Shown: positions 142 to 39,769, counted from the whole stretch's first letter. The stretch: 60,149 nt of DNA, filler included, from Nemertoderma westbladi (GCA_032718475.1; 2 parts of 2 records of this genome joined end to end with filler, not necessarily neighbours in it), one strand, 5' to 3'. Notes: generated from the letters alone by a model not told the origin. Program-made: numbers and translations.

Positions 142-747
142 TTTAGTATATCAAGAAGATTGGGGTGTCTGATTATTTATCAGTATTCCAAATATAATAT
201 TCCATCAACAAATATAATGAATAACCGACAGTAAATAGCAGTACAAAGTTTAAGGTGTGAATGGTTATGAATGCAGTGAGTTTCGTTCTGATTTGGTATG
301 ATAACAGATATACGTTCTATAATTAAGCCTACTAATGTTGGGCTAAAGACTGAAACACGGAGGTTCCAAAGCCGGTGTTCGAGGCTGTGGACAAAATCAC
401 ATACTGACTCAACTCCACGAGTTTCTATATACAATCTCTAACGCAGAGGCAAAAAAACGCTCTGATTGGTCGACCGAACAAAGAAGGAACAGAGAACAAA
501 GAAAAGCTCCACGTATACAGCATCAGCTGTTAGCCGTCGTCATGGTAGCTACACTGTTTCCAGAGGATTTGGCGCATTGCGTCATAAAATTGCTAATCAT
601 GTCCGCTAAAGTACACATACAGAAGAAATGGCTTTTATGTCCTCTAAAACAACAGTACAGTAAGGACACGGCCATTTATGCCTGTTAAACCAACTACAGA
701 GTACTTTACGGGGAAAATAACCGGCTAATTACGCAAAAGCCTTTACA
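142..747 (-). repeat. 3' LTR, distal end missing or interrupted
   Basis: Matches 14547-15150 with about 3 substitutions and 2 single-base indels. Begins TGTAAAG on the minus strand at 747. Similarity stops abruptly at 142. Confidence 0.92.
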
Positions 748-758
748 CCGCTCCCAGA
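748..758 (-). promoter_or_regulatory. Polypurine tract
   Basis: Minus strand reads ...GGGAGCGG directly before the TGT start of the 3' LTR. Confidence 0.7.
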
Positions 759-825: not shown

Positions 826-3800
826 TTAGTCTTTCTTACGCGGACGGCGTTTACGCAGTTTTTTGAGGCTAGCAAGAGTCCTTTTCTCTTTGGGGCGAGC
901 CACTTTACTAGGAGGGCTGTAACTCCTGGGTGAAGGGTGCAATACAATTGCATCAGAAGGTTTAGGATTACGATCGGTATATCCGCCGGTCGAGGTACCT
1001 GGTTGATCGATATCAACTTCAGTGGAGCGAGGTCTAACGGCCTTTAGGGCGCGTCTTAGGACAGCAGCTCCTACGGGTCCTTGACGGGTCGTCTGGACAA
1101 TGGCGGTAGGTGGACCGTGAGTGGTGAGAAACTTCCTTGGTTTAATGGTTCTTTCCAGCTCGCGTTCTCGGGCTCGATATTCGTAGGGCCGTCGAGATAC
1201 TTCCTGTAACTCAGGGTGCGAGTTGATAAATAAATCGCCATACTCAGGGTCTTGACGGATGAAATTGATCAAATGGTATGAAGTAATATCGTTAGGATTG
1301 ACGTTCCTAAGATATTTTCGAACAAATTTGGTGGAAATACACTCACCAACACGCTTCATTAGTTCGTAACTCGGTGTGCGTGTTTTTTGTTCCACAGACG
1401 CGAATAAATAAGGATGGAACGCGTAAACTCCCTCATAAGAGCGTCCAGGGTAGTAGCGATGGCGGGACTCACAATGTAAATCCGCGTTCGCTTCCCAAGC
1501 TCGGATGTAGCGCAGGGTAATCATCTCATCTACGCTTTCTAAATCGCGGTTAAAGGGGCAATTATAACTGGCATGTCCTTTAAGTTGACAGTGGTGGCAT
1601 TGGGTCATAAATTGGGGGCAGACTGCAAAAATATGCGAGTTATTAAGTCTGCAATACGCACAATAGATCTCCATCATCGGTTGTTCGTGGAAATAGGAGC
1701 AGGGTACGTCTGAGTCCATAGGGGTGAAATGGTCTCTCGATGCGCATAATCGACAACGTTTTCGAGAAACATAGTTGGCGTGTCGATAATCGTATGCGGT
1801 GAGACATTGTGGACCTTGATACCACTCCAAGACGTAATCGTTATCGCTGCTCCGGGGCGCTGTAGGCTGGATCGCTTCAGACTCTAAGCAGATTGGTTCG
1901 TCTTCCAATTGCATAGCTGAGGTAGGTGCGGCTGTCTCCGCAAGCGGACCCACTGTCTGAACTTCCACGACAGAATAACCTGTGGGTATTCGGGGTCTTT
2001 GTATAACAGATGAATGTAAGTTCTGTATACAAACGTCCTGAAAGAGAGCAAATCCCGCGCTGTTTAGCTTCTCCGCAGCTGAGTCTCTTAGGCTGAGTTT
2101 GGTCAGAGCGCGGTCCTTGAACTGACTATCAACGTTACGGAACGGAGTCAGAAAGCGCCTGAAACATTCGAAGCGGATGAATTTATTGTGTTCATCTAAC
2201 TTGGCGAGTTTGGTTCCAAGTATTAAGGGATGGGCGCGTATGGTACGACTGCACACATCGGCGAGCCAACCGGCAAGTGCTGCGTTTTCAAAGATCGTGT
2301 ATATAGCTAAGGAGGGACGAAGTGGAACACTCATAAAGCTATACACGGCGCCAGGTGCGGTCAATGGTCCATCAAAGTATAAACGAGAATAATGATCTCC
2401 ATATACTTGTTGGTAATTTATAGGATTTCCAACCTTGAAATTCCATCCGTATTCTTGAAAGGCAAGATGTCCGATGGAGGTTCGTTGTACTTTAGTAATG
2501 CCGCTGGGTGTATTTGCATACATAGTGCGGAAGAAACCTCGGCCTTCTGCCCAGGGAGCAATCAGCTGAGTATCCACGAAAGGGTATGGGATGTTCTCCA
2601 TATTCCGAAAGTCGTTTTGTAGATCTCCATAAACAGCTGAGCCGATTTTAAGGATTCTTTCGTTAAACAACATCTCGAGCACGGGCTGGGGTAACATCGA
2701 TCCATCGATACCCATGGCCGGTTTGCGCTCGGTGTCGGCGACATAACGCTGCGCGAGTTCGAATTGTCCATGTCGGAGTTTCTTTTGTGTCTCAGTAAGA
2801 GTCTCAAAAGAATAATCAATCACATCGGAACACGCTCGAGTAAATACGTGGGTAGAACCAGCGAGTCCTCGTATGTGTATCATCCGCGTAGTTCCCAGTT
2901 CTCCAACCGGAACGCTACCTTCGTTGTCGTAAGTGACAACTCCATACATCTCGATAACGTTAAGAGTCTCTTTCCACTCTTTAGTGGCGTTTTCGAGGGT
3001 CATTCCCACTGGATGCCACAAGGTAGCGCATTCGCTAGCATTAGGTAGGTCTCTATACTTTAAATATTGTGTGGTATATGTTTCCACATCTCCATATCGT
3101 TGTATTCTTTCCTCCTCGAATAACACGTCAAGATTCCAGTGTACTAAACGAGTTTTGATGAATCCATCAAGATTATACGGAGGTATTGTTTCTTTCTCTA
3201 TTCTGGAAACATTGTATGGTTTTCGAAATGAGTTTATTTTAACTAACTGATCCAGATGTTTATGCAGTTGTTCGAGTTCGACAAGATCGAGAGGATTTAT
3301 GAGTGGCAGAAACCTCAGACTATGTGTAGGATCTTCCGGTTTTACCATGTAATATTGTGTTAGGTTGACGTAATAAGGGTGATCTTTGATCCCATAAAAC
3401 GAGTCCGGTAAAGGTCTAGCACGTATGTTAACATCGTGTACCATGCGACGGACAAGATCCGCTCTATTGTCCGGAGGTTCAACGAGTATACCATCGACAC
3501 GAGCGGCTTCGATGGGCGGACGTTGCAACATAGGAGCGTCAGCGATAAGATCTCTAGATCTTAGGTTGATATCAACCGGTTGGGGTTGTACCGTCGCAAA
3601 GAGTTTGTCTCCGAAATGGGGAACCATCGAGGGATGAAGGATGGTTTTAGAGTAGAGATCCGTCATAAGGATTTGAGCTTCGGGTTGAGCTAAAGCTGCT
3701 TCTTCTCTCTCATCTAGTTCTATATGTCTCTCCTCGAGCTGATTTTCCTCCGCTTGTTGTTGTAGACGCTCATCTAGGAACTCTTGTAAAGAGTAGGTTC

Positions 3801-5079
3801 GTCCACGTTCGATGTCCTCCTCGAGATTTTGTATTTCTCTATCGAACTGGGGTAAAGCTAATTCCTTCACCGCTTGGACTTGTTGTTGCAATTTACGTTT
3901 CTCCATACAATCGTAAGTTCCTTTTCCGATTTTCTGCCGAATAGCGTCTAACGCGTTTCGTACGACGCTCTCTTCGACTTCCATAACGGGTTGTATCGAG
4001 GTGAAGCCGGGACGGTTGTGTGGGTTAAACGGCGATATTAGATGACCGCGTCCCAATCCAGCTAGGTAGGGTTGGCGAATATCTAGCGAGCCTACTACCG
4101 GAGTGCCACCGATCAACTGTTCGGGTAACACTAGATCTTTGAACAGTGAGTACAGTTCGGGAGGATCCGTGATACTATTAGGATCAAGAGTCTGAGGTCT
4201 AACTGAGGAATGAGGAGGTCTGACCGAGTATTCCGGAACTCTGATCATTGGTTTGTTCAAGGATCGTTTGAGTCGAGCGACCGTAGGGGATACGTCGAAC
4301 AGGTTTCGCTCGAAACTCCCATAAGTATATCGTGTAAAACTGTGTTTAGCGCAACGTCTCCGCGGATGTTTATGTCTTTCCATTTGCTGATTGGGTCTAG
4401 GGCATTCGTCGCAGTAATACCAAAGACGCACGTCCTGCAGGGGAAACGCGGGTGATCGTTCTCCAGTTTTACAATATTCCTCCATCTGTTCGAAGCTATC
4501 TGGGACAACAGGTAGCGGTCGATCGGCGGTAAGATACATCATAGTGAAATAGAGTCGTTTGAGTTCTATCATAGGATCATGATGTATACCTTGAGGATAT
4601 CTAGTTTCGAGATTTTGTTGGCTGGAAATATTGAGATATGTCTCTCTCAGGAATTCCAGATAATCGTTGAAGTCACTACGTTTATCTGGCTCTTCAACGT
4701 CTTCCCTTTCGAGTCTGTTTCGAATAGAGTTCTCGTGTTCTATTCTCGGTTTATCGTTCCGACTCCGCTGGGTATGATATTTAAATAAAACCATTTCCCT
4801 TTCGGTATCTACATCATCCGTATCGTGTAAATCGATAGGATGGCCGGTAGTTAAGAAGTCCATATACGTACCATTACGATGCGTATAGCGAGCGGTGAAC
4901 TTTCTATAATCCAATTCACGCGTAAGTTGCTCCGGGGACATTGGCGGTTCGATATAACGACCATCATCCTCCGTAGTAGTTGGACCAGCGTCGCCGCGTA
5001 TCAAGCTATCGACAAACACTTGTAAAGGTAGAGTATATCGCTCCCTGATACTAAGATCATCTTCTATCAACTCAGTCAT
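826..5079 (-). CDS. Retroelement accessory protein (1417 aa): coiled coil, DEDDy-like 3'-5' exonuclease, three CCHC-type zinc knuckles, basic C-terminus
   Basis: Uninterrupted 4.25-kb ORF. Exonuclease-like motifs VVTYDNEG (ExoI), LPQPVLEMLFNERILKIGSAVYGD (ExoII), FVDTQLIA, SIGHLAF and PLRPSLAIYTIFE (ExoIII-like). Knuckles CRLC..H..C, CAYC..H..C and CHHCQLKGHASYNC. Ends KKLRKRRPRKKD. Confidence 0.85.
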   Translation of the reverse strand: MTELIEDDLSIRERYTLPLQVFVDSLIRGDAGPTTTEDDGRYIEPPMSPEQLTRELDYRKFTARYTHRNGTYMDFLTTGHPIDLHDTDDVDTEREMVLFKYHTQRSRNDKPRIEHENSIRNRLEREDVEEPDKRSDFNDYLEFLRETYLNISSQQNLETRYPQGIHHDPMIELKRLYFTMMYLTADRPLPVVPDSFEQMEEYCKTGERSPAFPLQDVRLWYYCDECPRPNQQMERHKHPRRRCAKHSFTRYTYGSFERNLFDVSPTVARLKRSLNKPMIRVPEYSVRPPHSSVRPQTLDPNSITDPPELYSLFKDLVLPEQLIGGTPVVGSLDIRQPYLAGLGRGHLISPFNPHNRPGFTSIQPVMEVEESVVRNALDAIRQKIGKGTYDCMEKRKLQQQVQAVKELALPQFDREIQNLEEDIERGRTYSLQEFLDERLQQQAEENQLEERHIELDEREEAALAQPEAQILMTDLYSKTILHPSMVPHFGDKLFATVQPQPVDINLRSRDLIADAPMLQRPPIEAARVDGILVEPPDNRADLVRRMVHDVNIRARPLPDSFYGIKDHPYYVNLTQYYMVKPEDPTHSLRFLPLINPLDLVELEQLHKHLDQLVKINSFRKPYNVSRIEKETIPPYNLDGFIKTRLVHWNLDVLFEEERIQRYGDVETYTTQYLKYRDLPNASECATLWHPVGMTLENATKEWKETLNVIEMYGVVTYDNEGSVPVGELGTTRMIHIRGLAGSTHVFTRACSDVIDYSFETLTETQKKLRHGQFELAQRYVADTERKPAMGIDGSMLPQPVLEMLFNERILKIGSAVYGDLQNDFRNMENIPYPFVDTQLIAPWAEGRGFFRTMYANTPSGITKVQRTSIGHLAFQEYGWNFKVGNPINYQQVYGDHYSRLYFDGPLTAPGAVYSFMSVPLRPSLAIYTIFENAALAGWLADVCSRTIRAHPLILGTKLAKLDEHNKFIRFECFRRFLTPFRNVDSQFKDRALTKLSLRDSAAEKLNSAGFALFQDVCIQNLHSSVIQRPRIPTGYSVVEVQTVGPLAETAAPTSAMQLEDEPICLESEAIQPTAPRSSDNDYVLEWYQGPQCLTAYDYRHANYVSRKRCRLCASRDHFTPMDSDVPCSYFHEQPMMEIYCAYCRLNNSHIFAVCPQFMTQCHHCQLKGHASYNCPFNRDLESVDEMITLRYIRAWEANADLHCESRHRYYPGRSYEGVYAFHPYLFASVEQKTRTPSYELMKRVGECISTKFVRKYLRNVNPNDITSYHLINFIRQDPEYGDLFINSHPELQEVSRRPYEYRARERELERTIKPRKFLTTHGPPTAIVQTTRQGPVGAAVLRRALKAVRPRSTEVDIDQPGTSTGGYTDRNPKPSDAIVLHPSPRSYSPPSKVARPKEKRTLASLKKLRKRRPRKKD

Positions 5080-5899
5080 ATCTGCTATGAGTTTATCAAT
5101 ATTACAATGAGTTTATATATTAGGCTAGCGGGCGTCGCTGCCTACCCCTCTTTTGCCCCCGGACAGTGCAAGATCCTCAGCGCCGATGTACCGTCGTTGC
5201 TGTGCTTTCGCCAACGATGTAGCTACACAACGACAACGATAACCGGCACAAGTCACTCCACTGTCCGTCCCAAAGGCTTAGATGTACTTCAGGTTCTTTC
5301 TGGAGAGTTAGGGCTACTTTCACAATTGCGACTAGCTACTGTAAACACACTTTAGCAGTAACATTCACCTATGAACGCACAAATTCAACACAACTGCCAC
5401 AAACTGTGCACATTCGGGCCATTTGTCCGTTAGTCAAGTGCCTTCCAGAATGTCACGTTGTTATTATGTATCCTTGGATACTAGCGGTGTGCTATTTATT
5501 CCGTATGCTATTCAATGAGCAAGCTTTTGATTGTTCTGTTAACTCGCTTCTAATTCTAGCGTGGTTGTTGCTATGGTGACATTATGGAAAGCTAGCGGTA
5601 GAATTAGGGTAATTCTCATGCATACAGATCTGGGATGCTATTTAATAGTAAGTCTTTAATGGTCAATATCATCTTTATATATGATTTTATGAATTTTATC
5701 GGCTATTGACTCTATATTGGAGATTCTCGCACACTAATACACTTAATAGAGTGAATCTCCGCTCCCATGATCTATTAATTAATGGAATTTTGGGAATGTT
5801 ATAAATTGTATAAAAATAACAATTTATTAAATTCATTAAAATATATGAATTTAAATTTATTCCCGTAAATTGTATTATTTAATGTTAAATAGACACAAT

Positions 5900-6163
5900 T
5901 TTATTCCAGAACGTGTCTGGGGACTGGGATCCTTGATTCTAGGAATTTTGTCTTTTTAAGAGTATCGGTAAGTGCTACGATATCTTAATTGACTAGAATT
6001 TTAAAGGATCCAAAATTCGACAGATTTTGTAAATATTAATAATTAATATTTAGGATGGGCACCAGTTTATTCCAGAACTTGTCTGGGGACGTTAACCACT
6101 GATTCTAGAATTTGTCTTTCAAGTATATCGGTGGGTGCCGCGATATCTTAATCGACTAGAATT
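5900..6163. repeat. Diverged duplicated ~100-bp motif between pol and the accessory ORF
   Basis: ttattccagaac.tgtctgggga...gattctag..ttttgtcttt...tatcggt..gtgc..cgatatcttaa..gactagaatt occurs at about 5900-6000 and 6067-6163. Confidence 0.8.
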
Positions 6164-6711
6164 ACAGATGGTCAAAGGGTTTAACAGATTTATTTGCGTT
6201 GTACGCTACTGTTAAAGGGACATCACGCTACTATATGTATTATTTAATATACGGTATGAGAGCAATATCGCACGAAGCAATGTCAGTGAGAAGAGGCAAG
6301 TCGTTTCCAAGGTCTACCCAGAGCTTGGTTTAGCCGAGACACGAGGATCTGAATTTTGCATTCCTAATACTCTGCTTACCAATAATACTTAAATATAGTA
6401 GGAGCTTTATTGTACTTTAATAAGTACGGACATTTCATCTTACTGTAGTTACGTATTTGTAATGTAATACGGACAGTAAGGAAGGAGAAAAAGAATTAAT
6501 TCTCGCCGTCACACTAAATATATAATATATAAGTAATTAAGTAATAAACATTAATATATATTGCACTAATCTACTAAATAATCGCTAAAATAACATTCTA
6601 CTAAATAAAATTAAAGAAAACGATTATAATAAAATTACATAATAATACATACATAAATATAAAATAATAAGAATATAAAATAATATGGTCACACACCCAC
6701 TCCAGACGATG

Positions 6712-9700
6712 TTACGTTGGGGAGTCCCTAGATGTTTGTTGGATTAGGGAGGTGGTCGTGGGAAGAGTATCTTGCCTTCCATAGTTTCCGGACAGTTCTC
6801 GGTCTCTTTCCAGTAAACATAAACGACCAACTGGGCGATTGAGCTGCTGTGTCTCGAAGACAATTCCAGGTTTCCTCTTCGTCCTGGAATAGTGACGATA
6901 GAAACATCGCTTCAAATACATGACGGCCTTACAAAGCCGATTCCAGGATCTATAGTGGTCCATCGCTCCCGGCAGGAGAGGTGAGAGTCGCGGCGAGACG
7001 TCTGGTGTTCCAGATCTCCAGTCTCTCTCTCTGATCTCCACAACAGATCGGTTCGCAGTGGGGGAGTTTAGATCCACAGCGTCGTCCCTGGCAATGTGTA
7101 ATACAGACAGATCTATCACGGGTTTAAATAACCTTGATTTACTCGTCCGGGTTTTAGGTTCGACTTTCTCCGCTCCCTTGGCTTGTCTAATCTCAGCCGT
7201 GGTAAGATGGGGAGGCCATTCATCTTCTTTACTTAGGAAGTCGGGTCCACCTAACCAGTCTGGAGTATCTGTCAGTTCTTGAGGAGTTGCTCCTCGGGAA
7301 GCGATGTCGGTTAGATTAATCGTCTCGGGGCAATGTCTCCATTGATCTACATTGGAGTTAATATCGTCATTATCTGAGGAGTATGGTGTTCCCTCAGTTG
7401 GGTCGTCTACCTCACTGCTCTCCGCTTCCCATTCACTTACTTGGTATACCCGTTCTTTTGGTAACCTTTCTATGAGAGTTCTACGGGAAGGGCCAGTAAG
7501 GTACCAACCTACTCGAGTTCTTCCCGCATAGGCTTGTAGTGGTTGCGGTTGAGCAGGCCGTTTCTCCAATGTCTCGAGCGCTTCATGCGCATTTTGACCG
7601 ATGAGTATTTGGACTCCAGGGTAATCGGTGTTGAATCTAGGTATTTCAAGCTGCTGGGTGAAATCGTCCTCATCCCAGTTATAAGGTTCTACTTGGCTGG
7701 TAGCGAAGTTCTTTATCGCAACCATTTTTACTGACCTTATGCTGTGTTCTCCTAGTTCATCCTGGGGGGTGGACAACGCACCTACATAATAATCCGTTAT
7801 TACTGTAGATTTCCAAACCTGCATAATTCCTGACATGTTTAACTTAGTTCGGAACTTGGGTTGTCCAGCAAAGATGTCTTCGGCTAGTTCTTTGTCGATG
7901 AATGTTCCTGTGCTACCGGAGTCAAGGAGGGCGTTCACTATATAACTCCTTTTAGGTCCATGGACCCTTAACTGTACTACAGGAAATTCTCGGATTCCTA
8001 CATTGGAAGTTGGCGCTTTCCAAGATGGTTGTCAGTCAGAAGTAGTTAGGGTGAGGTCGCTGTCTGTGTCTTTTTCATACGTAAGTGCTCGATACACTGC
8101 GGTATTTATCATGTAACAGGATTCATTTTCGTCGGAGAATTCATCCATATAGAATCCTTCCATCTCAGAACTTTGGTCAGTGTCGTTCACATCACTGAAT
8201 TGGACATGTAGTTCGGAATCACTTACCTGACTCTGGCTGTTTCGCTCGAATTCAGTGTGCAACAAGATATGATGTTTCGCACCGCACTTTGCACACCTTG
8301 TGTCGGAGTAACAGGTTCGCCGTTGGTGTCCTTGTCTGAGGCAATTATAACACAACCGCTTATCCCACATGACTTCCCATCTATCCTTTAATGATTTCTT
8401 TAGGAATTCATCACACATATTCAAACGGTGGGTCCCGTCACATAGCACACATTTCGGTTTGATGTTACTTACCTTATTTTGAATAACATTGTGCACACTC
8501 GTTCTTTCTTCGGGCTTTCTTACCTGAATTCTCTTAGGAGACGTAGGGGGAGTTTTTCTTACCTGTTCTCTCCTGTCATTGGTTCGAGACTTGAATTTAC
8601 TTACTTCCTTAGGCGCTTTGTTGTCATAGTAAGATCTTTCAGTGTCTTTCCCGCTGTCCTCTCCTTGAGAAGCCTGGCTTTCGCCGTCGTCTGTATAACA
8701 CACTGGTGTTACCTTTCTCCTAGAAACGGGTTTCTCACTTACCTTGTTTTCCAGTGTCTTCTCTCTGGACTGCTTTAGGAGCTATAATTTCACTTCTCCA
8801 TCTAAGAATGACATGAGATCAGCCATGGTAGGGTCTAGTCGTTGCTGTTCCATCATATATAACACTTTCTTATCCCAGCGTGTACCCACTCCACCCTTCG
8901 GTAAAGTAGAGGCCACAGCTCCAATAACCATAGAACTCTGATATTCATGAGACTTACCTAGCCAATCTAATTGTCTACAGATCTCCTGAATCTCATCGGA
9001 AAACTCTATAATCCCGCTGCTAATGAATTTTCGGGGCGCTACCAATTTTGCATACAAATACCTAGCTATGTTATTCCTATTACCATACCTGATGTTTAGT
9101 GTATCCCAAACTTGTCTTAATCCGTCTGGATGTCCAATAAACTTTAACGCCATTAACTTGGGAGATCCTTCCAAGCACTCGATGAGGAATCTAAGTTTCT
9201 CTCCATTAGATAGTACAGAGTTCTGTATGTTATCTTTATAATATTCATTAAAAAAAGGTAACCATTTCATCTCATCTCCATTGAACTTGACTATCTCTCC
9301 CACCTTTACCGCTTGACGGGCTTCGGTTCTAGCCATTTGACGCGTAAAACTTTCTTGGGCCATCGTGTTATTTAATATTGAGTTATCGGTATATAAATTT
9401 CTCGGATTATGATCAGGTCTATAGGGAATATCATTATCAACAGGTCTATAATTACCCTTAATAGGGTTCACTATAGGAGTTTCTACTTCACTAGCAGTAT
9501 AGATGCGTGTAGGCTCCACACCTTGCGCATGAAACACTTCAGACCTAACAGGTTGACACATTGTTACAGGGGGTGGTGGTATACCCTTTTGTGTATTTAC
9601 TAATTTATCACGTTCTAACGCGATACTTTGCTGCACTTCTTGCAACTCTAACCTACTCTCTCTAATTGTTCCCTTTAACTGCTGCACAGTTCCCTCCATC

Positions 9701-11673
9701 TCCTGGGCCTGCCGAGAGGAGCGAGAATGTTGTTCCCTCAGCTGTCCGAGCAGGGGACCCATCTCCCGTCGTCCCTCATCTACCCACTCGACCGCCGAAG
9801 CGGGAGGCGCCAATGTTGTAGCGGGCGGACGAGGGACAACGGGCGACAAGTCATGAATATTTCGCTCGGAGTCCCGGACATGAACAATTTCAGGGGTGGT
9901 TCTGTGGGGCACAGGTAGCTTCGTGCTGTGCAGAGGGAATTTAGAGGTAGGTTCAAGGAGTACAGGTGTCTCTAGCACCGAAGGGGTGGCTTCGAGAACA
10001 GGCCTAATTATTTCAGGCTCATCTACTATAGTAGGGAGTCTTTCTATATTAATTATTTGGTCTGTGGGTTCTGTACTACCTAAGTTTGTGTTAGTTAGTT
10101 GCCTTCTAACAGCTGGGGGCAAATCAGGCAATTTCTGACGGTGGGATATTCTTCTACGTCTGCTTAGACGAGATCTATTTCCTCCGCCTTCAGCATCAGT
10201 TGTATCGCCTTCCTCAGATGATGTATATCCCTGCCTTTTGGGAGTAGATCGACTCATCATCTGCATTTGACTAGCTGTTAACTGTTTATTTATGCAGTCT
10301 TGATTCTCTTGAATATTTTCCAAATCTAGTTGGGCGATCTCTTCAGCCGCTCTACGTTCTGCTTCTGCCACCGCTATCTTTCTTTCCGCTTCTGCCGCTG
10401 CTGCCGCTTTTGCCTCTGTCGCTGCCGCTTTTGCCTCTGCCGCTGCTTCTGCCGCCTTTCCTTGTGCTTCTGCTTCTGCTGCTGCCACTGCTGCTATCTT
10501 TCTGTCTTCTATACGTTTTTTCTTTACTTGTTCTTCTTGGACTTTAGCGATGCGGAGGCGTTCATCAAATTTAGCTTGGTTCGCCGCTCTCATATCCACA
10601 TCGATTGCGTCCAACACAAGCTTGGTTCCTTCGCTATTAGGGCTAAGTCCATCTAGCCTTCTCCTCAACTCTTCATCACCTAAAAAGCGTTGATAGTCTG
10701 ACAGATAGATGTCAATGGTATCCCTCTTATGCGGTTTCTCTGCCATCGCTTCACTTTCCACTTGTGAAAAAGTAGCGTCTGTTGATTCTCCATGGGTTGA
10801 GCGCTCATCTAGCTGAGCTTTCCACTGAGCCGTTCCTTGAACCTGGAGACTCACCCGTTGAAACCAAGTCTTTACGGCAACTTGCAACAACGTGTCTTGT
10901 CTTCTTTTAGAAGCTTCCTCAAAGGCTGATAAGATTAGCCTGATTCGTAGAATTTTTTCTCTAACTTGATAAAGCAGCTGTCCCTGCTCTTGAGGTCCTT
11001 GGGGTTGTTGAAACAGTTGTTCTTCTAATCGCTCCATGGAGCTGAAGAATCCCTAGGCGTATCCTGCTGCGGACCTCTTCCACACAGCTGGATCGATGGT
11101 TTCCTTGGTTACTCCCATCCTGTGTATGTCTTCCCAGGCAGCTTCTGATAAATCAAACGGGAGTCCGGGTCCGGGGAAGTTCCATTGCGACTCGACAATA
11201 GACTTCAGTTCTTCCCTTGTGTATCCCGCATAACTATCTTTAGTCGATCGCTTATTTCTCACCCAATCGATCTGGTGTTCTTCCACCGCAGTCAATAACC
11301 TAGTGAGTACGGCTGCAGGAAGGATGAGAAGGGGATCCGAATAAACCGCATCCGTCATCTTTGCTCTGTGCTCGGGTGTCAGCTCTTCAGTATCCGCACT
11401 ACTGGAGCTGTCGGGCCGCTGAGAAATAAGTTCTCGGCTCGCGGGTAGTTGCTGTTCTGCTGCTTCTTGGTCCCGCTTAACCTGAGCTCGAGTGCCTATG
11501 ATAGACCTACGATGTTGGACTAGCCTAGGGTCTGATATTACTACGGTAGGGATGATCTTTCTTACAGTAGGAGGTGAGTTGAACTTCGGTCCTACACGTT
11601 CCACACTCCTGTCTGGGTCACATATGGTTGTATCTAGGAGACTGTCTGACAGGTTTTGCTTTGTGTCAGACAT
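6712..11673 (-). pseudogene. BEL/Pao gag-protease-(deleted pol) polyprotein, one reading frame with three internal stops
   Basis: ORFs 11053-11673, 8782-11037, 8032-8703 and 6712-7938 share one frame, separated only by TAG, TAG and TGA. Contains DUF1759-like KFNGDEMKWLPFF..EKLRFL, knuckles CVLC/CYNC/CAKC..HHILLH, ALLDSGS, TRVGWYLTG, RNase H tail WRHCPETINLTDIASRG..WLGGPDFL and integrase end RPVGRLCLL. No RT YxDD or integrase DDE core is visible. Confidence 0.88.
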
Positions 11674-11799
11674 GTTGGTTTGTACAGTTGAATGTCTACT
11701 GCTATATTACAGTTTAAGCAAGTCTAGCAATTCAGTATCACCATTAGCCTAGTAATTAATTACCGATACTGCTACTCAGTGTAGCGTAATATATATATA

Positions 11800-12190
11800 A
11801 TATATTAGAATACTGGTATGCTTATAGTATATATATAAGTATTGTCACAGACTAGATTTGTCACAGAATACCGGTATGTAATTTCAGCACAAGTATAGAT
11901 AAATATATAATAGGCCTATCGTGAATACCGGTATACAGCTTACACTTATAGTGTATATAAGTATAATTATGAACTAGAATTAATTACAGAATACCGGTAT
12001 AATTTCAGCCTAAAATTTATAGAAATAAATATAATAAGCCTATCGTGAATACCGGTATACAGCTTACACTTATAATGTATATATATAAGTATAATTACAG
12101 ACTAGAATTAATTACTGAATACCGGTATAATTTCAGCCTAAAATTTATAGAAATAAATATAATAAACCTATTGTAAATACCGGTATGTCA
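11800..12190. repeat. Imperfect tandem repeats (aataccggtat-containing) in the retroelement leader
   Basis: Recurring blocks aataccggtat, cctatcgtgaat, actagaattaattac and aatttcagcctaaaatttatag. Confidence 0.75.
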
Positions 12191-13133
12191 ATTATTTTAG
12201 AATAATTGAATTTCTGAATTTTAAGGGTTACTTGGTTACTTTAACTTACTTTATTACCGTTATTTAAGCAGTAGTCCAACTGATATTTAGACCTAATTGA
12301 TGTATGGCAGGCCTACTATTTATAAATCGTTTGAGTTGATTTATAATATATATACCCGTTAAAATGGGTTTTGTCAATGTTTGAAATAAATGTTATTATT
12401 TCTGGGGGGAGTCACTACACAGAAGCTGTGCGCTCTCAGTGAAGTGCTACTTGTTGGACACTAAAACAAATAATTCTAATTTACCTAAGTTACTTAATAC
12501 TACAAATTACGTACAATTCGGGTGAGATTACAATCTCTAAATAAACACAAAAATTACAAGTACGAATTTTTAGGGTAATTTTACAAGAAGTCTACTAACC
12601 AGCCTAACAAAGGGTTAGAATATCTGGTTATTACAACGGACAGGTTACTACGGTATTTGAAAATAATAAGTAGTAGTAAATATACTGCGTTGTCCAGATA
12701 GAAAAATACCACCGTCTGACGACTTATAGCCGTATCGCTATAAGTACTACGTTATGTATCACGGAGTGTTCCTACCTAGAAGTTAATTACCGCGGTCTAC
12801 CAGAACCAACGTGCCTATTAACCACTTTACAACACAAATATACTGTCTACACACTAATCACCTTCGGAAAGCACTGTACATTAAACCCTAAATTAGGTAC
12901 AAGTACTTATACAACAAATAATCAGTAGTTAAAAATACTTGTACAGCTAAAAGAACCACGGTATCTGCTGGAGTGACCGGGGCACAAAATCACCAGTCTT
13001 TACCTACGCCAAGCAGCCCTGATGTAGTACCGGGGTTAATTTAACTATAACGGTATATATAACAAGCACAATTACTGTAGGAACAAACTTGGGGATATGA
13101 ATGTTGCGAATAATCGCATAAACTCTGAATAAT

Positions 13134-13705
13134 AAATATTACGCTACGCGTACAGACTACTCAAACAAAATGCAGACCAAATACTGACAGACTACTATCA
13201 AGCCTAAACAAACTACGGTATATGCAGACTCCGAAATGGTTAGTTAGTATGCGTTCTAACCGAGTAGTACGACTTATTCTTTCGAGGGGGTTTACCTCAC
13301 AGCTCTGGAAGCCCCTACGTTCCCAACTGGCACTTTATCGGACATACACTCTACACACACCGAAATCTCTTCAGACCTAACAACAGCCAGACAAAATCCA
13401 GCCTACAAATTATCTAAATAAGAAATATTACGCTACCCGTACAGACTACACAAACAAAGTACAGACCAAACGCTGGCAGACTACTATCAAGCCTAAATAC
13501 ACTACAGTATATGCAGACTCCGAAATGGTTAGTTAGTATGCGTTCTAACCGAGTAGGACAACTTATTCTTTCGAGGGGGTTTACCTCACAGCACTGGAAG
13601 CCCCTACGTTCCCAACTGGCACTTTATCGGACATACACTCTACACACACTACAGTCCCTTCAGACTTTATGACAGTCAGACAACAGTCCAGCCTACAAAT
13701 TATCT
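13134..13705. repeat. ~289-bp tandem duplication in the retroelement leader
   Basis: aaatattacgctac...cctacaaattatct is present twice, starting at about 13134 and 13423. Confidence 0.9.
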
Positions 13706-14483
13706 GTACAATCTGAGCAGGCTTACACGCCTTCTGCTCAATATTAGCCTACAAATAAATAAAACTTGACAGAAACAAGTAAAATCTCAATAAAAAACCA
13801 GGGCGGCCGTCCCTGATTAATTATTAAGGCCTACCGGTATATAATTATCAAAATCGAATAATACTGCTGTACCTGTACTGCTGTAGGTACCGGTCCGGGT
13901 GGTTAGGTAGTCAGGCCTACTGGGTACCGGTTGCCGGTACTTCAGCTTTATTGCCTACTGCAATACAGAAGCTATATCTGTTATTGTTCGCGCTTTCAGA
14001 CCTTTAGCAGTTTAACCTGCCAAATTGGGATGTCTTCTAGATAATAGATTGTCTTTAGCCTATGACAAGTATTTGATACACTACATTAGCCGAAGCCAGT
14101 CTATGCGCGATCATTCACCCGCTGGATATACCCGGGAGACTGGATTCGGAAGCCTAACCGTATTGCGGGGTAGGCCTACTGTATTATTCGACTGGTCGCA
14201 ATATATATAATCTCCGACAAATATTATTCACTTTCGGGAAATATTAACAGTTCCTTTAGGACGTGGCGCTCTAAATATGTAAACAGAGCTATGACTTAAA
14301 CTAGACACAACGGGATGGCTATAGATTCACGTATATGGCGCATTCTTTAGGAGATGCTTTGTTATCAGTCACAATCATACACAATACTGCACAATGCTGC
14401 ACACTGATCTGCCGACCTTCACTAATTTTAGTCACATATAAAGAGAACAACAGACAATACATGTAGGGCCTATAAAATAGCAT

Positions 14484-14501
14484 TAGATTCACTTCAAACC
14501 A
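14484..14501 (-). promoter_or_regulatory. Candidate primer binding site
   Basis: Minus strand reads TTACA-TTAAG-TGGTTTGAAGTGAATC, a TGG 5 nt after the putative LTR end. The matching tRNA cannot be assigned. Confidence 0.35.
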
Positions 14502-14506
14502 CTTAA

Positions 14507-15150
14507 TGTAAGTCGCAATCGTTATATGTAACCGGTCTCTCTAACCTTTAGTATATCAAGAAGATTGGGGTGTCTGATTATTTATCAGTATTCCAAATAT
14601 AATATTCCATCAACAAATATAATGAATAACCGACAGTAAATAGCAGTACAAAGTTTAAGGTGTGAATGGTTATGAATGCAGTGAGTTTCGTTATGATTTG
14701 GTATGATAACAGATATACGTTCTATAATTAAGCCTACTAATGTTGGGCTAAAGACTGAAACACGGAGGTTCCAAAGCCGGTGTTCGAGGCTGTGGACAAA
14801 ATCACATACTGACTCAACTCCACGAGTTTCTATATACAATCTCTAACGCAGAGGCAAAAAACGCTCTGATTGGTCGACCGAACAAAGAAGGAACAGAGAA
14901 CAAAGAAAAGCTCCACTATACAGCATCAGCTGTTAGCCGTCGTCATGGTAGCTACACTGTTTCCAGAGGATTTGGCGCATTGCGTCATAAAATTGCTAAT
15001 CATGTCCGCTAAAGTACACATACAGAAGAAATGGCTTTTATGTCCTCTAAAACAACAGTACAGTAAGGACACGGCCTTTTATGCCTGTTAAACCAACTAC
15101 AGAGTACTTTACGGGGAAAATAATCGGCTAATTACGCAAAAGCCTTTACA
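14507..15150 (-). repeat. 5' LTR (TGTAA...TTACA)
   Basis: The right boundary (ttaca at 15150) is shared with the other LTR. The left boundary is inferred from tgtaa at 14507 next to the PBS candidate; tgtaa at 14527 is an alternative. Confidence 0.85.
14831..14873 (-). promoter_or_regulatory. CCAAT box and TATA-like box of the LTR promoter
   Basis: Minus strand GACCAATCAG is followed about 33 nt later by TATATAGAAA, in the element's sense orientation and in both LTRs. Confidence 0.5.
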
Positions 15151-20249: not shown

Positions 20250-20744
20250 ACAGATAAAGTCGGTCCGTCTAAAACAGACTGACACTGACTGACTGACAGC
20301 TGGACAGTACCTGCCCTGCAGTGACCTAACAGTCAGACAGTGTGCGCTCTTGCGCACCAAAAATAACCTTTTTTTCTAAACATACAGACATAGGCTTAAA
20401 ACATGTAAATACGGAAATTTTAATTGACAATTTAATTTATTTTTAATTTAGTATAAAACATAGCAACGATGCAGCATGTACGTACGTACAGTACATATAG
20501 TAAGAGTAACATAGCCTAGATTATACAGTTATAGTCTGATAGTAAGTAGCTATGTACTATCTGACTATAGCAGCTAAACCCGTGAACCCTGAACCTGAAC
20601 TACCTTGTTGAGTTGTTATTTATATACCAGTCTGCCAGTACCTGTTTGCTGGTTTGCCTGTCACCTGTGCGGTATAAGACATTTTGTTTGTTAGTAATAT
20701 TTGTGTAAGTCTTATTTATGCTATTTTAAGTTGTAACATTTAAG

Positions 20745-21491
20745 ATGGATGATGAACAAAGTTTAAAGGAGTGTGAGGCGTACGTTCAGAAGCACAACAT
20801 CCAACAGGTTCTCAAGGAATGCATCGTTCAGCTTTGCATCCACCGACCAGATGAACCAATGACATTCCTCCGGGATCACTTCGGCCAACTGGCCAAGGAG
20901 AGCAAAAAATCCGCGGACAAACCCAAGAAATCATCCTCGGATGAGCAGGAGATTGAGCAGGACACACAGGAGGAAGATCCCTCCCCGGTGCCTCCGGTGG
21001 GAGGAGCGAAGCGTCCACGTCGAAGAGGAGCCGTTAGCGCTGAGGTTTATACGGAAGAGGACGCCGCTAGTTATGTGAAGAAAGTCGTCCCGAAGGATTA
21101 TAAGACGATGGCAGCGCTCTCTAAGGCCATCGAGAAGAATATATTGTTCGCTCATCTCGATGAAGGTGAGAAGAGCGATGTCTTTGACGCCATGTTCGGG
21201 GTGAATCACACCGCTGGGGAGGTGATTATCCAGCAGGGCGACGACGGGGATAACTTCTACGTTATCGATTCCGGCGAGGTGGACGTTTACGTAAACGCGG
21301 AGTATATATCGTCGATCTCGGAGGGCAGCAGCTTCGGGGAGTTGGCGTTGATATATGGGACGCCGCGCGCTGCCACCATCAAGGCGAAAACGGACGCGAA
21401 GCTGTGGGCAATCGACAGGGACACTTACCGGAGGATCCTGATGGGTTCCACAATGCGGCGACGTACCATGTACGAGTCCTTCCTCGCCAAG
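20745..21491 (+). CDS. PRKAR1: cAMP-dependent protein kinase type I regulatory subunit, coding exon 1
   Basis: D/D domain [26 protein letters not shown], pseudosubstrate RRRGAVS and cAMP site [17 protein letters not shown]. Similarity ends at the phase-0 donor AAG|gtaggc. Confidence 0.97.
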
Positions 21492-22099
21492 GTAGGCCGA
21501 ATATTAATTTTTTGTTATTTCCTTAATTCCATCGCCTCTATCGAACTCACCAAAAGTAATATCAGTTAATCAAACGTTTGCATTTTCCTTCTATAATAGG
21601 CTAATATGTAAACTTAACATTACCAGTACCGTACTAAATATATTTTGGTTGAGGGGCGGGCTTATAATTTAGGCCTCTCAGCCTTTCATCCTCTCCCTGT
21701 GGTATACAATTTGGATCATTTGAATTACTGGGAGTAAAACTTGGTATAGGAGGAGCGGGTAGCACCCTCTGGAGGTTTTTTTTTTAATTTAACCTTTATA
21801 GCATTTATTATATTTAACAATTATATACACTGATCCACCATTTGCGTTTACCACTCTTCTCAATTTAGAATCTTAGCAGAACAATAAAAAACAACAAGTA
21901 GTTAGTTAGTTTGATCTTTAATGTCCAGGGCCATAACCCCCCCCCCCCCCCCACTCCAACAGAAAAATGCATCTCACTTTCACTATCACCATTACAGACC
22001 CGAACATGAAATGTTATTCTATTTATTATATTTAATTATCTGCGCTACGCGCGAGTGGACCATCACATTTCGCCCTTGGGAGCAGTAAATCGCTGTACC

Positions 22100-22499: not shown

Positions 22500-23508
22500 T
22501 ACACTATGTCCTAGAATATAATAGTATCGTTATTCGGGGGAGTATCGTTTCATTATACCCCTCCAATTTTTCTACAAATCGTAATGAGAATGCATGAAAT
22601 TTGAAACAGAGATAGTTTCACCTCCCGACCACTGACTGGGTGAGCCAGAAATTTTATTTTTGCTTTCATTCTTTAGCTACTAGTGTTTGAAAAAGGTGTC
22701 TCCGGAGATTTTTCACAGTTCCCAGTGCAATCATTTTTCCAGTCATTTGTTGTTAGTACCAATAGAAAGCTGGCCGTGCATTGATTCCAAATATGTAAAA
22801 ACATTTGAATTTGGCTGGTAAATAGCTGAGATATTCGAATGTTGCATTGTATTTGCTTCCACTGCAGGCCATTTATTATATTTAATAAATGTACTTGTTT
22901 ATCCCATACGTAGCTGGGCAACAATGCAATACCTTTTTAATCATACTATTATGGAGCAGGAGCTATTGAATAGCTATGTAATATAACTCGTACAAAATAC
23001 AAAGGAGCACGAAAGGAAATACATACGTGTGCAGTATTATTTATAGTGGGACAAATAGTTAACTTGGGCTAATGGGATAAAACAAAATGTTCTAGAATAT
23101 TGTATTTTTATTTAATAGAATAAAACGCCTTGTGCAGGTGCTAAACCATGCAACCTTTGAACGTTCATAACTCGGCTATTTCCCAACCAAATTCAAATGG
23201 TTTTATATTTTTAGAATCCTTGTACGGTCAGCTTTCTATTGGTTCCATCACGATACGGTTCAATAATAACTGCAATGTAACTGGTGAAATATCACCGGAT
23301 AAACCTTTTTCAAACGCTTGTACCGGTAGCGAAAAAATGAAAGCAAAAATATAAGTTCTGGCTCATCCAGGAGGAGGGAGGTGAAACTATCTATGTTTCA
23401 AATTTCATCTAATATCACTAAGGTTTGTAGAAAAATTTGGAGGGGGGGGGGGGGGGGGGGGGGCAGGTACCTCTTGAATAACGACACTATATTCCTGGAC
23501 ATGGTGTA
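22500..23508. mobile_element. MITE with long imperfect TIRs, Tc1/mariner-like, in the PKA-RI intron
   Basis: tacactatgtcc...tttctacaaa...gaaatttgaaaca..gatagtttcacctccc..tgagccagaa is inverted at 23357-23508 (ends ggacatggtgta). A related right end occurs at about 28600-28702. Confidence 0.7.
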
Positions 23509-31871: not shown

Positions 31872-32490
31872 CAAGTGAAAACAAATTATACATCATCTAT
31901 TATAGCGACAGCAAATTTGAACACTAGTGGTCGAATTTCTGGTTGAAAATGATGAACTCTGGGTTTTGTGGGTTTTATATCTTTCAATATTAAATTATTC
32001 AATTTTAATTAAGGTTTCAATGACAAATGCTAATTTTTTTTTTAATTATTATATTAAAAGAAAAATTATTAATAGAAGGACTATTATTAATAGGAGGGCT
32101 GGGGCAATATTGTTAATAAGGCAGGTGGGTATACTCGGGGTACCACCTACCTTACCTGTCTTACTTTCTTATTTTTCGTTGGACAAGCCTGGGCTGGGAT
32201 AATGTGAATTCTATCTGGTCTGGATGCTAATGTTACTTCAACAAATATTTATTGGGTGATATTGTAGAATATTGAGCCCAATGTACTTTATGATGCAACG
32301 TGAGCATCCGCTCGGGGTAGAATATAAATTAATAAAGAAGCCGCAAGGTGGTGTAATGGAAAGCAAGTCTTATCAGTCACTGCTTATACTGATACAGTAT
32401 AAATCAAACAACAAAGGTTATGCAGCAATCTATTCGGCTTTCTTGACAGCCGATAACTTACAACCCTTCGGATGAATTCAGAATATTTTA
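31872..32490 (+). repeat. ~620-bp direct repeat, copy 1
   Basis: Nearly identical to 34138-34757, with about 8 differences seen. Confidence 0.92.
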
Positions 32491-32577
32491 ATTTTTAATC
32501 AATTAAATTACAGTTAATTTTTTAAGCCTATATGCTAGTCACATAATAATTAATTATACAATTACAATTACAATAAT

Positions 32578-33780
32578 AACAATTATACATTCTATTGCGA
32601 GCACTATTGCGTGAGTATACGCTTGCCGCACAAGTAATTTCATATTCTGTGCCGCATAATTAATTATACATTCTATTGCGAGCACTATTGCGTGAGTATA
32701 CGCTTGCCGCACAAGTAATTTTATATTCTGTGCCGCATAATTAATTAAACATTCTATTGCGAGCACTATTGCGTGAGTATACGCTTGCCGCACAAGTAAT
32801 TTTATATTCTGTGCCACATAATTAATTATACATTCTATTGCAAGCACTATTGCGTGAGTATACGCTTGCCGCACAAGTAATTTCATATTCTGTGCCGCAT
32901 AATTAATTATACATTCTATTGCGAGCACTATTGCGTGAGTATACGCTTGCCGCACAAGTAATTTTATATTCTGTGCCACATAATTAATTATACATTCTAT
33001 TGCGAGCACTATTGCGTGAGTATACGCTTGCCGCACAAGTAATTTTATCTTCTGTGCCGCATAATTAATTAAACATTCTATTGCGAGCACTATTGCGTGA
33101 GTATACGCTTGCCGCACAAGTAATTTCATATTCTGTGCCGCATAATTAATTAAACATTCTATTGAGAGCACTATTGCGTGAGTATAGGCTTGCCGCACAA
33201 GTTATTTTATATTCTGTTCCGCATAATTAATTAAACATTCTATTGCGAGCACTATTGCGTGAGTATACGCTTGCCGCACAAGTAATTTTATATTCTGTGC
33301 CGCATAATTAATTATACATTCTATTGCGAGCACTATTGCGTGAGTATACGCTTGCCGCACAAGTAATTTTATATTCTGTGCCGCATAATTAATTAAACAT
33401 TCTATTGCGAGCACTATTGCGTGAGTATACGCTTGCCGCACAAGTAATTTTATATTCTGTGCCACATAATTAATTATACATTCTATTGCAAGCACTATTG
33501 CGTGAGTATACGCTTGCCGCACAAGTAATTTCATATTCTGTGCCGCATAATCAATTATACATTCTATTGCGAGCACTATTGCGTGAGTATACGCTTGCCG
33601 CACAAGTAATTTTATATTCTGTGCCGCATAAATAATTATACATTCTATTGCGAGCACTAATGCGTGAGTATACGCTTGCCGCACAATTTTATTTTACATT
33701 CTGTGCCCCATAATTAATTAAACATTCTATTGTGAGCACTATTGCGTGAATATACGCTTACCACACATTTAATTATATGT
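32578..33780. repeat. 81-bp tandem satellite, about 15 copies
   Basis: Unit cattctattgcgagcactattgcgtgagtatacgcttgccgcacaagtaattttatattctgtgccgcataattaattata recurs every 81 bp. Confidence 0.97.
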
Positions 33781-39379: not shown

Positions 39380-39769
39380 TACTACTACTACTACTAGGAT
39401 CGGCATGCTGCATTGCAGCTGCATTTTTAAGAATGCTGTGCCGGCTTGTCAACAAAATTGCACCGCCACAAGTCCCTATCACCCATGACATTTGCTAGAT
39501 CATCCGCATCTTCAAGGCCAGTGTCCTTTAAGATGCGTCTCAAGAAAGTCATGGGCTGTCCACCATGCTTATTCACTCCATGAGGCTGCCAAAGTACAAG
39601 ATTATGCACCTGCTGGTCCTCACGGCGAAAGCAATGTCCTGCAAAGCGGAGGCGATTTTGTTCTAGTGTCAAGCTTGGGGGAACCAATAAGACACCTCCA
39701 ATGTTATATAGTGTCTGGTTGGAGATGTGTGCATTGTACTTGACACAATGAACCCGGCGTAGCATTCTT
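39380..39769 (-). mobile_element. 5'-truncated RTE-like LINE 3' end with (TAG)n tail
   Basis: Nearly identical reverse complement of 53110-53485. Encodes RLRFAGHCFR and ends atcctagtagtagtagt. Confidence 0.85.

Follow-up and report, generated by a model that had tools for sequence, protein, structure and literature searches.

A third gene under purifying selection in a BEL/Pao retroelement family of Nemertoderma westbladi, with a probable DEDDy-type exonuclease fold and zinc knuckles

The third open reading frame (ORF3) of a BEL/Pao retroelement in Nemertoderma westbladi (GCA_032718475.1) is best read as a selected gene of a multi-copy element family, whose product is likely a 3'-5' exoribonuclease with RNA-holding zinc knuckles that most likely blunts small-RNA silencing. 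We give this reading as a whole a probability of roughly 0.45. The element lies in a window of 60,149 nucleotides, the whole stretch of DNA that was analysed, in which parts of two records of the genome are joined with filler.

The element is bounded by paired TG..CA LTRs (99.2% identical over 609 aligned bases) and has a polypurine tract; its 3' LTR is clipped (Table 1). A gag with DUF1759 (PF03564, E 4.2e-10, over the cut-off in a Pfam scan) and a triple zinc knuckle is followed by an aspartic protease (Asp_protease_2, E 0.0016), which supports the BEL/Pao identity proposed in the first-pass annotation of this DNA. The gag frame is broken by in-frame stops (11053-11055, 8782-8784, and 8032-8034). 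In the pol remnant, the protease leads directly into WRHCP..DIASRG..GPDFL (7341-7234) and SWNRL (6948), which we take to be the post-RNase H motifs of BEL elements. Pfam and motif scans of the pol remnant detected no reverse transcriptase (RT), RNase H core, or integrase; thus, this copy is a non-autonomous derivative. No canonical TGG primer-binding site was found directly behind the 5' LTR.

Table 1. Features of the retroelement and of ORF3, with positions counted from the first letter of the window.
Feature	Position	Strand	Remarks
5' LTR, 624 bp	14527..15150	-	starts TGTAA, ends TTACA in element sense
Non-coding long leader	11707..14526	-	tandem repeats: 128-bp (x2.9), 289-bp (x2)
BEL/Pao gag, single frame	8035..11706	-	DUF1759 ~9285-8899; three gag knuckles 8451-8257
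pol remnant	6712..8031	-	aspartic protease, LLDSGS at 7929
AT-rich non-coding spacer	5080..6711	-	
ORF3, 1417 aa, intact	826..5079	-	env position
Cys/His cluster, aa 223-246	4342..4413	-	possible zinc site, from sequence only
Charged helical, coiled-coil-like stretch, aa ~395-465	3685..3897	-	crude heptad scan
DEDDy-type 3'-5' exonuclease domain (predicted), aa ~700-950	2230..2982	-	D718, E720 (ExoI), D819 (ExoII), Y927/E931 (ExoIII)
Three close CCHC-type knuckles, aa 1109-1174	1558..1755	-	zf-CCHC_3 E 0.0016
Conserved post-knuckle motif, aa ~1190-1225	1405..1512	-	E..A........R.......G..F
Basic C-terminal tail	829..903	-	possible NLS or RNA-binding tail
Short purine tract GGGAGCGG	748..755	-	adjoins 3' LTR
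3' LTR	142..747	-	without last ~20 bases of 5' LTR

ORF3 sits between the broken gag-pol and the polypurine tract/3' LTR as an intronless 4.25-kb frame (coding positions 829-5079, stop codon 826-828) with zero internal stops, and the frame ends 78 bases before the 3' LTR. The initial description of an intact frame in the env position that lacks env features held up. The highest 19-residue hydropathy value is 1.19 and the N-terminus is acidic, so we predict neither a transmembrane segment nor a signal peptide; the C-terminus is basic. An env identity was rejected on the grounds that there is no membrane segment. Of the two features noted upstream of the exonuclease domain, the coiled coil is picked up by a crude heptad scan, whereas the Cys/His cluster has no Pfam match and no homologue that supports it. 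A CAG two bases ahead of the ORF3 ATG could be a candidate splice acceptor, and ORF3 may be expressed from a separate, perhaps spliced RNA.

Thousands of ORF3 variant contigs with 80-99% identity are present in three DNA runs. Variants among copies were collected from four sequencing runs; they are contig-derived and unphased, and the lists hold the best-supported 40 of 160 and the best 40 of 4069 rows. Within the exonuclease domain, 33 of the 40 listed variants are synonymous, against an expectation of 27.6% (p 8e-13, pN/pS ~0.08). Catalytic codons contain a single listed variant, which is synonymous, and no indels at a 20% share were found in the domain among the copies. Across the whole of ORF3, synonymous changes account for 8 of 12 listed variants. 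These unphased contig variants, used in place of the dN/dS comparison suggested at first pass, show that ORF3 is under strong purifying selection among copies. Since ORF3 multiplies along with the element, this implies that copies with a functional product gave rise to more descendants. An intact frame with codon-level selection among many copies therefore does something for the element, and it is very likely that ORF3 is maintained for the element's benefit.

We assign a DEDDy fold to residues ~700-950 with high confidence. As in the DEDDy family (E. coli RNase D, WRN, Nibbler/Mut-7, EXD1/EXD2, Rrp6, and Egalitarian), the motifs D-x-E, K-x-G...D, D-T-Q, and P-L-x6-Y-x3-acid occur in order and with matching spacing (YDNEG, 2931-2917; LPQPVLEMLFNERILKIGSAVYGD, 2694-2623; VDTQ, 2577-2566; PLRPSLAIYTIFE, 2325-2287). 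Unlike the family, to whose members it is 12-23% identical, the domain contains two insertions of ~30-40 aa each, has a candidate ExoIII (Y927-x3-E931) in which Glu (E931) replaces Asp and bulky residues occupy positions that are small in the family, and is accompanied by no HRDC match in Pfam scans of the whole of ORF3.

A four-block chain built from 40 bacterial DEDDy enzymes only scored 38.7 on ORF3, compared to 14.5 +/- 3.4 for shuffled sequences (maximum 34.5; 0 of 1000 shuffles reached the ORF3 score). It selected ExoI, ExoII, and VDT unprompted, which upholds most of the earlier claim that ExoI, ExoII, and ExoIII occur in order. ExoIII is the weak part of that claim: the bacterial matrix gives its block, YTIFE, a score of -2.6, other registers score higher, and the chain does not choose it, so that the ExoIII call rests on agreement with a distant homologue (P0001, see below) and on a multiple alignment. 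In this 42-row alignment of the 40 bacterial DEDDy sequences, ORF3, and P0001, residues D718, E720, D819, L920, and Y927 are invariant. D718 and E720 (ExoI) align with D and E in 40/40 bacterial rows and in P0001, ExoII comprises D819 followed by D836-T837 (K-x-G/H-x5-D, D-T), and the E931 column holds D in 40/40 bacterial rows and E in P0001. D941, also present in P0001, could be an alternative fourth acid.

Profile searches point the same way. Among 18,950 NCBIfam models, the best for ORF3 was RNase D TIGR01388 (E 0.0032; 16.8 bits on the ExoII stretch vs. a curated cut-off of 299), and PRK10829 gave E 0.021. A 40-sequence DEDDy profile scored 7.6 bits on ORF3 and 8.7 on P0001, both on ExoII, whereas the best of 500 shuffles scored 2.9. 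Used alone, the 17 WRN/EXD-like bacterial rows gave no separation (-0.2 bits vs. a top shuffle of 3.0), and with the 23 RNase D-like rows ORF3 scored 2.4 bits, below the 3.2 of the top shuffle. Pfam scans of ORF3 returned neither PF01612 (DNA_pol_A_exo1) nor any other exonuclease, and PDB sequence searches with the exonuclease domain produced chance matches only, none of them an exonuclease. A single-sequence AlphaFold model failed (pLDDT 30). The model from the 42-row alignment had a pLDDT of 64 overall (85-90 at motif cores), and its top fold matches were all DEDD enzymes (Z 11.7-14.0, rmsd 3-4 A over 160-180 residues), a largely circular result because 40 of the rows are DEDDy enzymes. Thus, of the checks proposed at first pass, the Pfam scan gave no PF01612 match and the fold search gave DEDD matches, albeit from an alignment-biased model. 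Overall, the DEDDy/RNase D-type fold is supported by the NCBIfam RNase D match, the 40-row profile, the alignment, and the block chain. The suggested specific link to the WRN/EXD1/Mut-7 subgroup was not supported, as DEDDy subgroups are tied in the fold matches of the biased model.

Downstream, all three of the CCHC-type knuckles originally annotated are present, and the third is canonical. The second reads C-x2-C-x5-H-x4-C, but the first is irregular in this copy (C-x2-C-x4-H-x9-C). A knuckle profile searched against the PDB had its best match in Air2 (E 4.3e-6) and also matched HIV NC and Lin28, all of them RNA binders, in keeping with the RNA-binding type initially proposed.

Only two matches to ORF3, P0001 (E 4.4e-7) and P0002, were recovered from 1.84 billion protein representatives, and no named cellular relative was among these. 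P0001 matches the exonuclease domain (30% over 150 aa), the knuckles, and the post-knuckle motif; its own Pfam DNA_pol_A_exo1 match has E 0.2 (11.9 bits vs. a cut-off of 23.6). ORF3 and P0001 are ~24-30% identical, and both keep acids at the four catalytic columns as well as the tyrosine. In P0002 the exonuclease region has decayed and the knuckle module is retained; thus, this module can persist without the enzyme. The post-knuckle motif is common to ORF3, P0001, and both P0002 repeats. Word-index searches yielded 0 of 4542 candidates for ORF3 aa 560-1290 and, for P0001 aa 25-275, only P0001 itself among 1674. A two-row profile search, in whose alignment ExoI is out of register, found 0 of 2449 at E 10. 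Searches of phages and plasmids (tblastn) gave matches at E 4-9 only, PHROGs gave nothing relevant, and viral contigs gave 0 of 16 candidate stretches. No indexed window had short words in common with ORF3.

The published descriptions of exonuclease cargo in retroelements that we found all concern unrelated rotifer elements, a precedent correctly named in the first-pass annotation. The bdelloid rotifer LTR retrotransposons Juno and Vesta carry a DEDDy ORF3 that is shared with Athena/Terminon elements (PMC5408684). As here, it is a separate third ORF behind pol in which an RNase D-like DEDDy exonuclease of predicted activity replaces env, and one catalytic Asp is changed to Glu (DEED in rotifers vs. 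D-E-D-E in ORF3; PMC5408684). The host elements differ (BEL/Pao vs. the rotifer lineages Juno and Vesta), and the rotifer proteins are set apart by their description, which gives them no coiled coil and does not mention CCHC knuckles (PMC5408684). Intragenomic variation in rotifer ORF3s was neutral for the env and GDSL types, the DEDDy type not being among those tested (PMC5408684), in contrast to the strong purifying selection observed here.

Another parallel is Trypanosoma brucei RNase D (TbRND; PDB 7c42, 7c45), which combines an exonuclease with CCHC fingers and trims small guide RNAs (PMC7797062). Like ORF3, which gave no HRDC match, it lacks HRDC and has tandem CCHC fingers behind its DEDD exonuclease; the fingers bind RNA at a point upstream of the 3' end (PMC7797062). 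TbRND is cellular and mitochondrial, with four fingers near the exonuclease and a canonical DEDD (PMC7797062), whereas the knuckles of ORF3 number three and lie ~160 aa downstream of the exonuclease domain; in addition, ORF3 carries an N-terminal part of 700 aa and the post-knuckle motif. TbRND was matched by the fold search (Z 11.7, biased model) and weakly by the ORF3 knuckle profile (E 0.084), and the likeness carries no sign of direct descent. The architecture that was unrecognised at first is therefore shared in layout by P0001 and, as far as exonuclease and CCHC fingers go, by the trypanosome enzyme. What is new is the BEL/Pao host, the exonuclease-plus-knuckle layout with no HRDC match, which resembles trypanosome RNase D, and the demonstrated selection.

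The ORF3 exonuclease is somewhat more likely than not to be catalytically active. It would employ two-metal 3'-5' catalysis with Glu931 as the fourth ligand; Klenow exonuclease reportedly retains much of its activity with Glu at the position of the ExoIII Asp, which we do not count as evidence. The role of the zinc knuckles would be to bind single-stranded RNA and guide its 3' end into the active site. That the substrate would be RNA, not DNA, is suggested by the knuckles and by the likeness to trypanosome RNase D. The targets may be small RNAs or their precursors, in which case host small-RNA silencing of the element would be blunted. Anti-silencing as the main role is a tentative assignment, for which we would offer somewhat less than even odds.

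Egalitarian and EXD1 have exonuclease folds that bind RNA without cutting it. ORF3 could similarly be a pseudo-nuclease whose fold acts together with the knuckles, coiled coil, and basic tail to transport or shield element RNA. Consistent with this are the remodelled ExoIII (Glu for Asp, bulky residues), the long insertions in the domain, the presence of Exd1 (Z 12.5) and Egalitarian (Z 11.7) among the tied matches in the fold search with the biased model, the knuckle module retained in P0002, and the occurrence of inactive DEDD derivatives in piRNA biogenesis (PMC5408684). However, ORF3 and P0001 have kept all four acids and the tyrosine at their low identity, which would be needless in a dead enzyme, and we regard such an RNA adaptor as rather unlikely.

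The same sequence evidence for an enzyme would fit an active exonuclease that trims the element's own RNA 3' end, primer RNA, or cDNA ends in replication. To our knowledge, other BEL/Pao elements replicate without a gene of the ORF3 type, which argues against this role; moreover, ORF3 is separate from gag-pol, so that its packaging is not obvious, and 1417 aa with a basic tail exceeds what end-trimming needs. Trimming has been put forward for rotifer ORF3s (PMC5408684), and the lack of a canonical primer-binding site behind the 5' LTR could mean an unusual processed primer, but we consider this role unlikely. A captured host gene riding passively, or a host gene near which LTRs have fallen, is very improbable and largely refuted: P0001 and P0002 may lie outside LTR elements, and none of the listed contig pieces from other copies (all <1.4 kb) spans both ORF3 and an LTR, but against this stand the intronless frame that ends so close to the 3' LTR, the thousands of divergent contigs, the strong synonymous bias among copies, and the search of 1.84 billion representatives that returned no named cellular relative.

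A bolder form of the anti-silencing reading, to which we assign a low likelihood, is that ORF3 founds an old retroelement-borne exonuclease-knuckle family (with P0001 and P0002) of active RNases directed against piRNA/siRNA defence. A BEL/Pao family without RT and integrase would then keep gag, protease, and ORF3 under selection as an anti-silencing helper that borrows its replication enzymes from other elements.

The gene bears on whether animal transposons deploy enzymes to counter small-RNA silencing; the rotifer exonuclease ORF3s were published without evidence of selection or activity. ORF3 adds an intact gene from a different LTR superfamily with codon-level selection, and its compact exonuclease domain is directly assayable. 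Its product would arm the element against host RNA silencing.

A single LTR element on the minus strand fills the first 15 kb of the window, and its two LTRs are 99.2% identical over 609 aligned bases. The first-pass annotation had assigned it to BEL/Pao, an assignment that we retain because the gag-pol frame encodes DUF1759 (Pfam E 4.2e-10, above the cut-off), three gag knuckles and an aspartic protease (E 0.0016). No reverse transcriptase (RT), RNase H core or integrase was detected in the gag-pol of this copy, and the short pol motifs remaining in the element are presumably those that follow the BEL RNase H. The pol remnant (6712-8031, minus strand) forms one open frame across the sites of the missing RT, RNase H and integrase. 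Loose ends at the RT junction were absent among the 24 listed of 3832 (counts incomplete), which weakly suggests that RT is lacking from the family as a whole and not from this copy alone. No canonical TGG primer-binding site occurs directly behind the 5' LTR (14400-14526), and a spacer of 1.6 kb separates gag-pol from ORF3.

Features of the element and of the contig carrying P0002, a distant homologue of ORF3
Feature	Position	Strand	Remarks
5' LTR	14527-15150	-	reads TGTAA..TTACA
gag-pol, single frame	11706 to 6712	-	three in-frame stops
3' LTR	142-747	-	without last ~20 bases; short purine tract adjoins
P0002	L001 79-2025		intronless ORF, then ~1.35 kb of non-coding DNA
Start of acidic ORF	L001 3384-3683		no Pfam match; beyond the non-coding stretch of P0002

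Elsewhere in the window, an open 279-aa frame (20730-21566, plus strand) matches the Pfam RIIa and cNMP-binding models of a protein kinase A regulatory subunit; being long and unbroken, it may represent either a retrocopy or a host gene poor in introns. The genes of the window outside the element, this one among them, are consistent with an animal as host. Broken reverse-transcriptase frames at 52293-53448 (plus strand; RVT_1 E 3e-12, DUF6451) are probably a non-LTR element fragment. An array of 81-bp tandem repeats (32419-33771; about 14-17 units), open on the minus strand, has a 300-bp direct repeat on either side (31872 and 34138), beside a run of N. At 22558-23444 there are nested inverted repeats of the kind usual in MITE-like elements, and a 378-bp repeat occurs in two orientations at 39392-39769 and 53109-53486.

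ORF3, an intact frame of 1417 aa, lies between the pol remnant and the 3' LTR, which begins 78 bases past its end. Because it has neither a hydrophobic segment (maximum hydropathy 1.19) nor a signal peptide, an env identity was ruled out. The anatomy described in the first-pass annotation holds, and every motif named there was found in its place. The N-terminal 700 aa had no Pfam match.

No Pfam exonuclease model, including the one suggested earlier as a check, matched ORF3, and a sequence search with the domain (aa ~700-950) returned no exonuclease in the PDB. Searched in isolation against NCBIfam, the domain had two RNase D models as its top matches (E 0.0032 and 0.021). As an independent test set we used 40 PF01612 proteins, picked from 149 matches listed and spanning stand-alone WRN/EXD-like, short RNase D-like and RNase D groups. 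Their joint profile scored 7.6 bits for ORF3 and 8.7 bits for P0001, a second distant homologue, both on ExoII (best of 500 shuffles, 2.9); neither of two sub-profiles used singly separated ORF3 from shuffles. A four-block chain built from the 40 rows picked ExoI (aa 714), ExoII (803) and VDT (834) unprompted and gave ORF3 a score of 38.7, reached by 0/1000 shuffles (mean 14.5, maximum 34.5). ExoIII is the weak point, with the chain favouring other registers and YTIFE scoring -2.6. In the multiple alignment including P0001, D718, E720, D819, L920 and Y927 are invariant (42/42 rows), and the E931 column holds D in 40/40 bacterial rows and E in P0001. D941, common to ORF3 and P0001, is a candidate alternative fourth acid. 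We conclude that ORF3 is a real feature with a probable DEDDy exonuclease domain.

Structure prediction from the single sequence gave no usable fold. A model from a 42-row alignment (pLDDT 64; motif cores 85-90) matched DEDD nucleases exclusively: RNase D (Z 14.0, with an rmsd of 3.6 over 167 residues), WRN (13.4), Nibbler (12.9), Rrp6 (12.7), Exd1 (12.5), and TbRND and Egalitarian (both 11.7). Because 40 of the 42 rows were DEDDy enzymes, these matches indicate compatibility rather than independent proof, and such a model cannot pick the DEDDy subgroup.

A phmmer search with aa 480-1300 against 1.84 billion representatives returned two matches at E up to 0.001, both singletons. P0001 (648 aa) aligned with the knuckles and, at 30% identity over 150 aa, with the exonuclease; the arrangement of its SIDVE, KVGSNIKAD, LDTQ and PLCHDQLYYIYCE follows that of the ORF3 motifs. 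P0002 (633 aa) matched in the knuckles and post-knuckle motif, present in two copies, and its N-terminus is exonuclease-like and decayed; its contig gave no proof of a surrounding LTR element. The best PDB matches of the knuckle module were Air2 (E 4.3e-6), HIV nucleocapsid and Lin28. Given the two homologues, the exonuclease, three knuckles and post-knuckle motif define a small, deeply diverged family, of which ORF3 is a long form.

ORF3 or part of it occurs in five sequencing runs from four studies, and four of the runs were analysed. Contigs span all 30 element bins in each of the four, and variant contigs, numbering in the thousands and 80-99% identical, identify the element as a multi-copy family; the listed contig pieces, all short, revealed no ORF3-LTR linkage in another copy. 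Deletion derivatives exist, since other copies have internal deletions (joints 972-3729, 1906-4712, 4842-5053, 6840-7168), several within ORF3. Run X5, labelled as a different organism and at a guess an RNA run, yielded pieces about 84-88% identical across ORF3 (889-3696), representing either a related family in a second species or carry-over.

Comparison between copies, with variants listed blind to codon position, showed codon-level constraint. Among the best 40 of 160 exonuclease-domain variants at 20% share, 33 were synonymous (expected, 27.6%; p 8e-13) and 35 at third positions, giving a pN/pS of about 0.08, a rough value because listed variants are well supported and hence older. None of the 40 introduced a stop, the sole listed catalytic-codon variant was synonymous, and the domain had no indels at 20% share. 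Across the whole of ORF3, 8/12 listed variants were synonymous, versus 34% expected for transitions, and the 12 listed indels (of 394) all fell outside ORF3; the gag-pol frame gave 8/16, after exclusion from its 17 rows of one that fell in a stop codon. Purifying selection on ORF3 is clear.

DEDDy ORF3s, putative exonucleases, are described in the rotifer Juno, Vesta and Athena elements (PMC5408684), an account repeated in PMC6431247 and PMC6338049. Their motif is DEED, whereas the site here is D-E-D-E, and the rotifer env and GDSL ORF3s that were tested vary neutrally (PMC5408684), in contrast to the purifying selection found here. Full-text searches of a collection with few subscription papers turned up no BEL/Pao element described as carrying an exonuclease ORF; Repbase, outside this coverage, may annotate one. 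What is new is the BEL/Pao host, the HRDC-less D-E-D-E exonuclease and knuckle module, and the clear purifying selection.

Since ORF3 is duplicated together with the element, and the copies have kept its protein sequence, it probably serves the element, and a passive passenger is scarcely credible. DEDDy domains use two metals to take nucleotides off 3' ends, and single-stranded RNA is the ligand of tandem CCHC knuckles. Trypanosoma brucei RNase D, which pairs a DEDD exonuclease with CCHC knuckles, trims small guide RNAs (PMC7797062). This family background and pairing favour an RNA exonuclease. An adaptor that holds RNA without cutting it, a reading that the weak ExoIII favours and the acids kept in both ORF3 and P0001 speak against, is unlikely; a role in processing nucleic acids of the element itself (RNA, primer or cDNA ends) is similarly unlikely. 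We give a probability of about 0.45 to ORF3 being a 3'-5' exonuclease of RNA, translated from its own transcript, whose knuckles would grip single-stranded RNA while the DEDDy domain trims its 3' end, the targets being host silencing RNAs. The Lassa NP exonuclease, which removes RNA and so escapes host sensing (PMC3429428), is a viral precedent, and we hypothesize that ORF3 may have an anti-silencing role.
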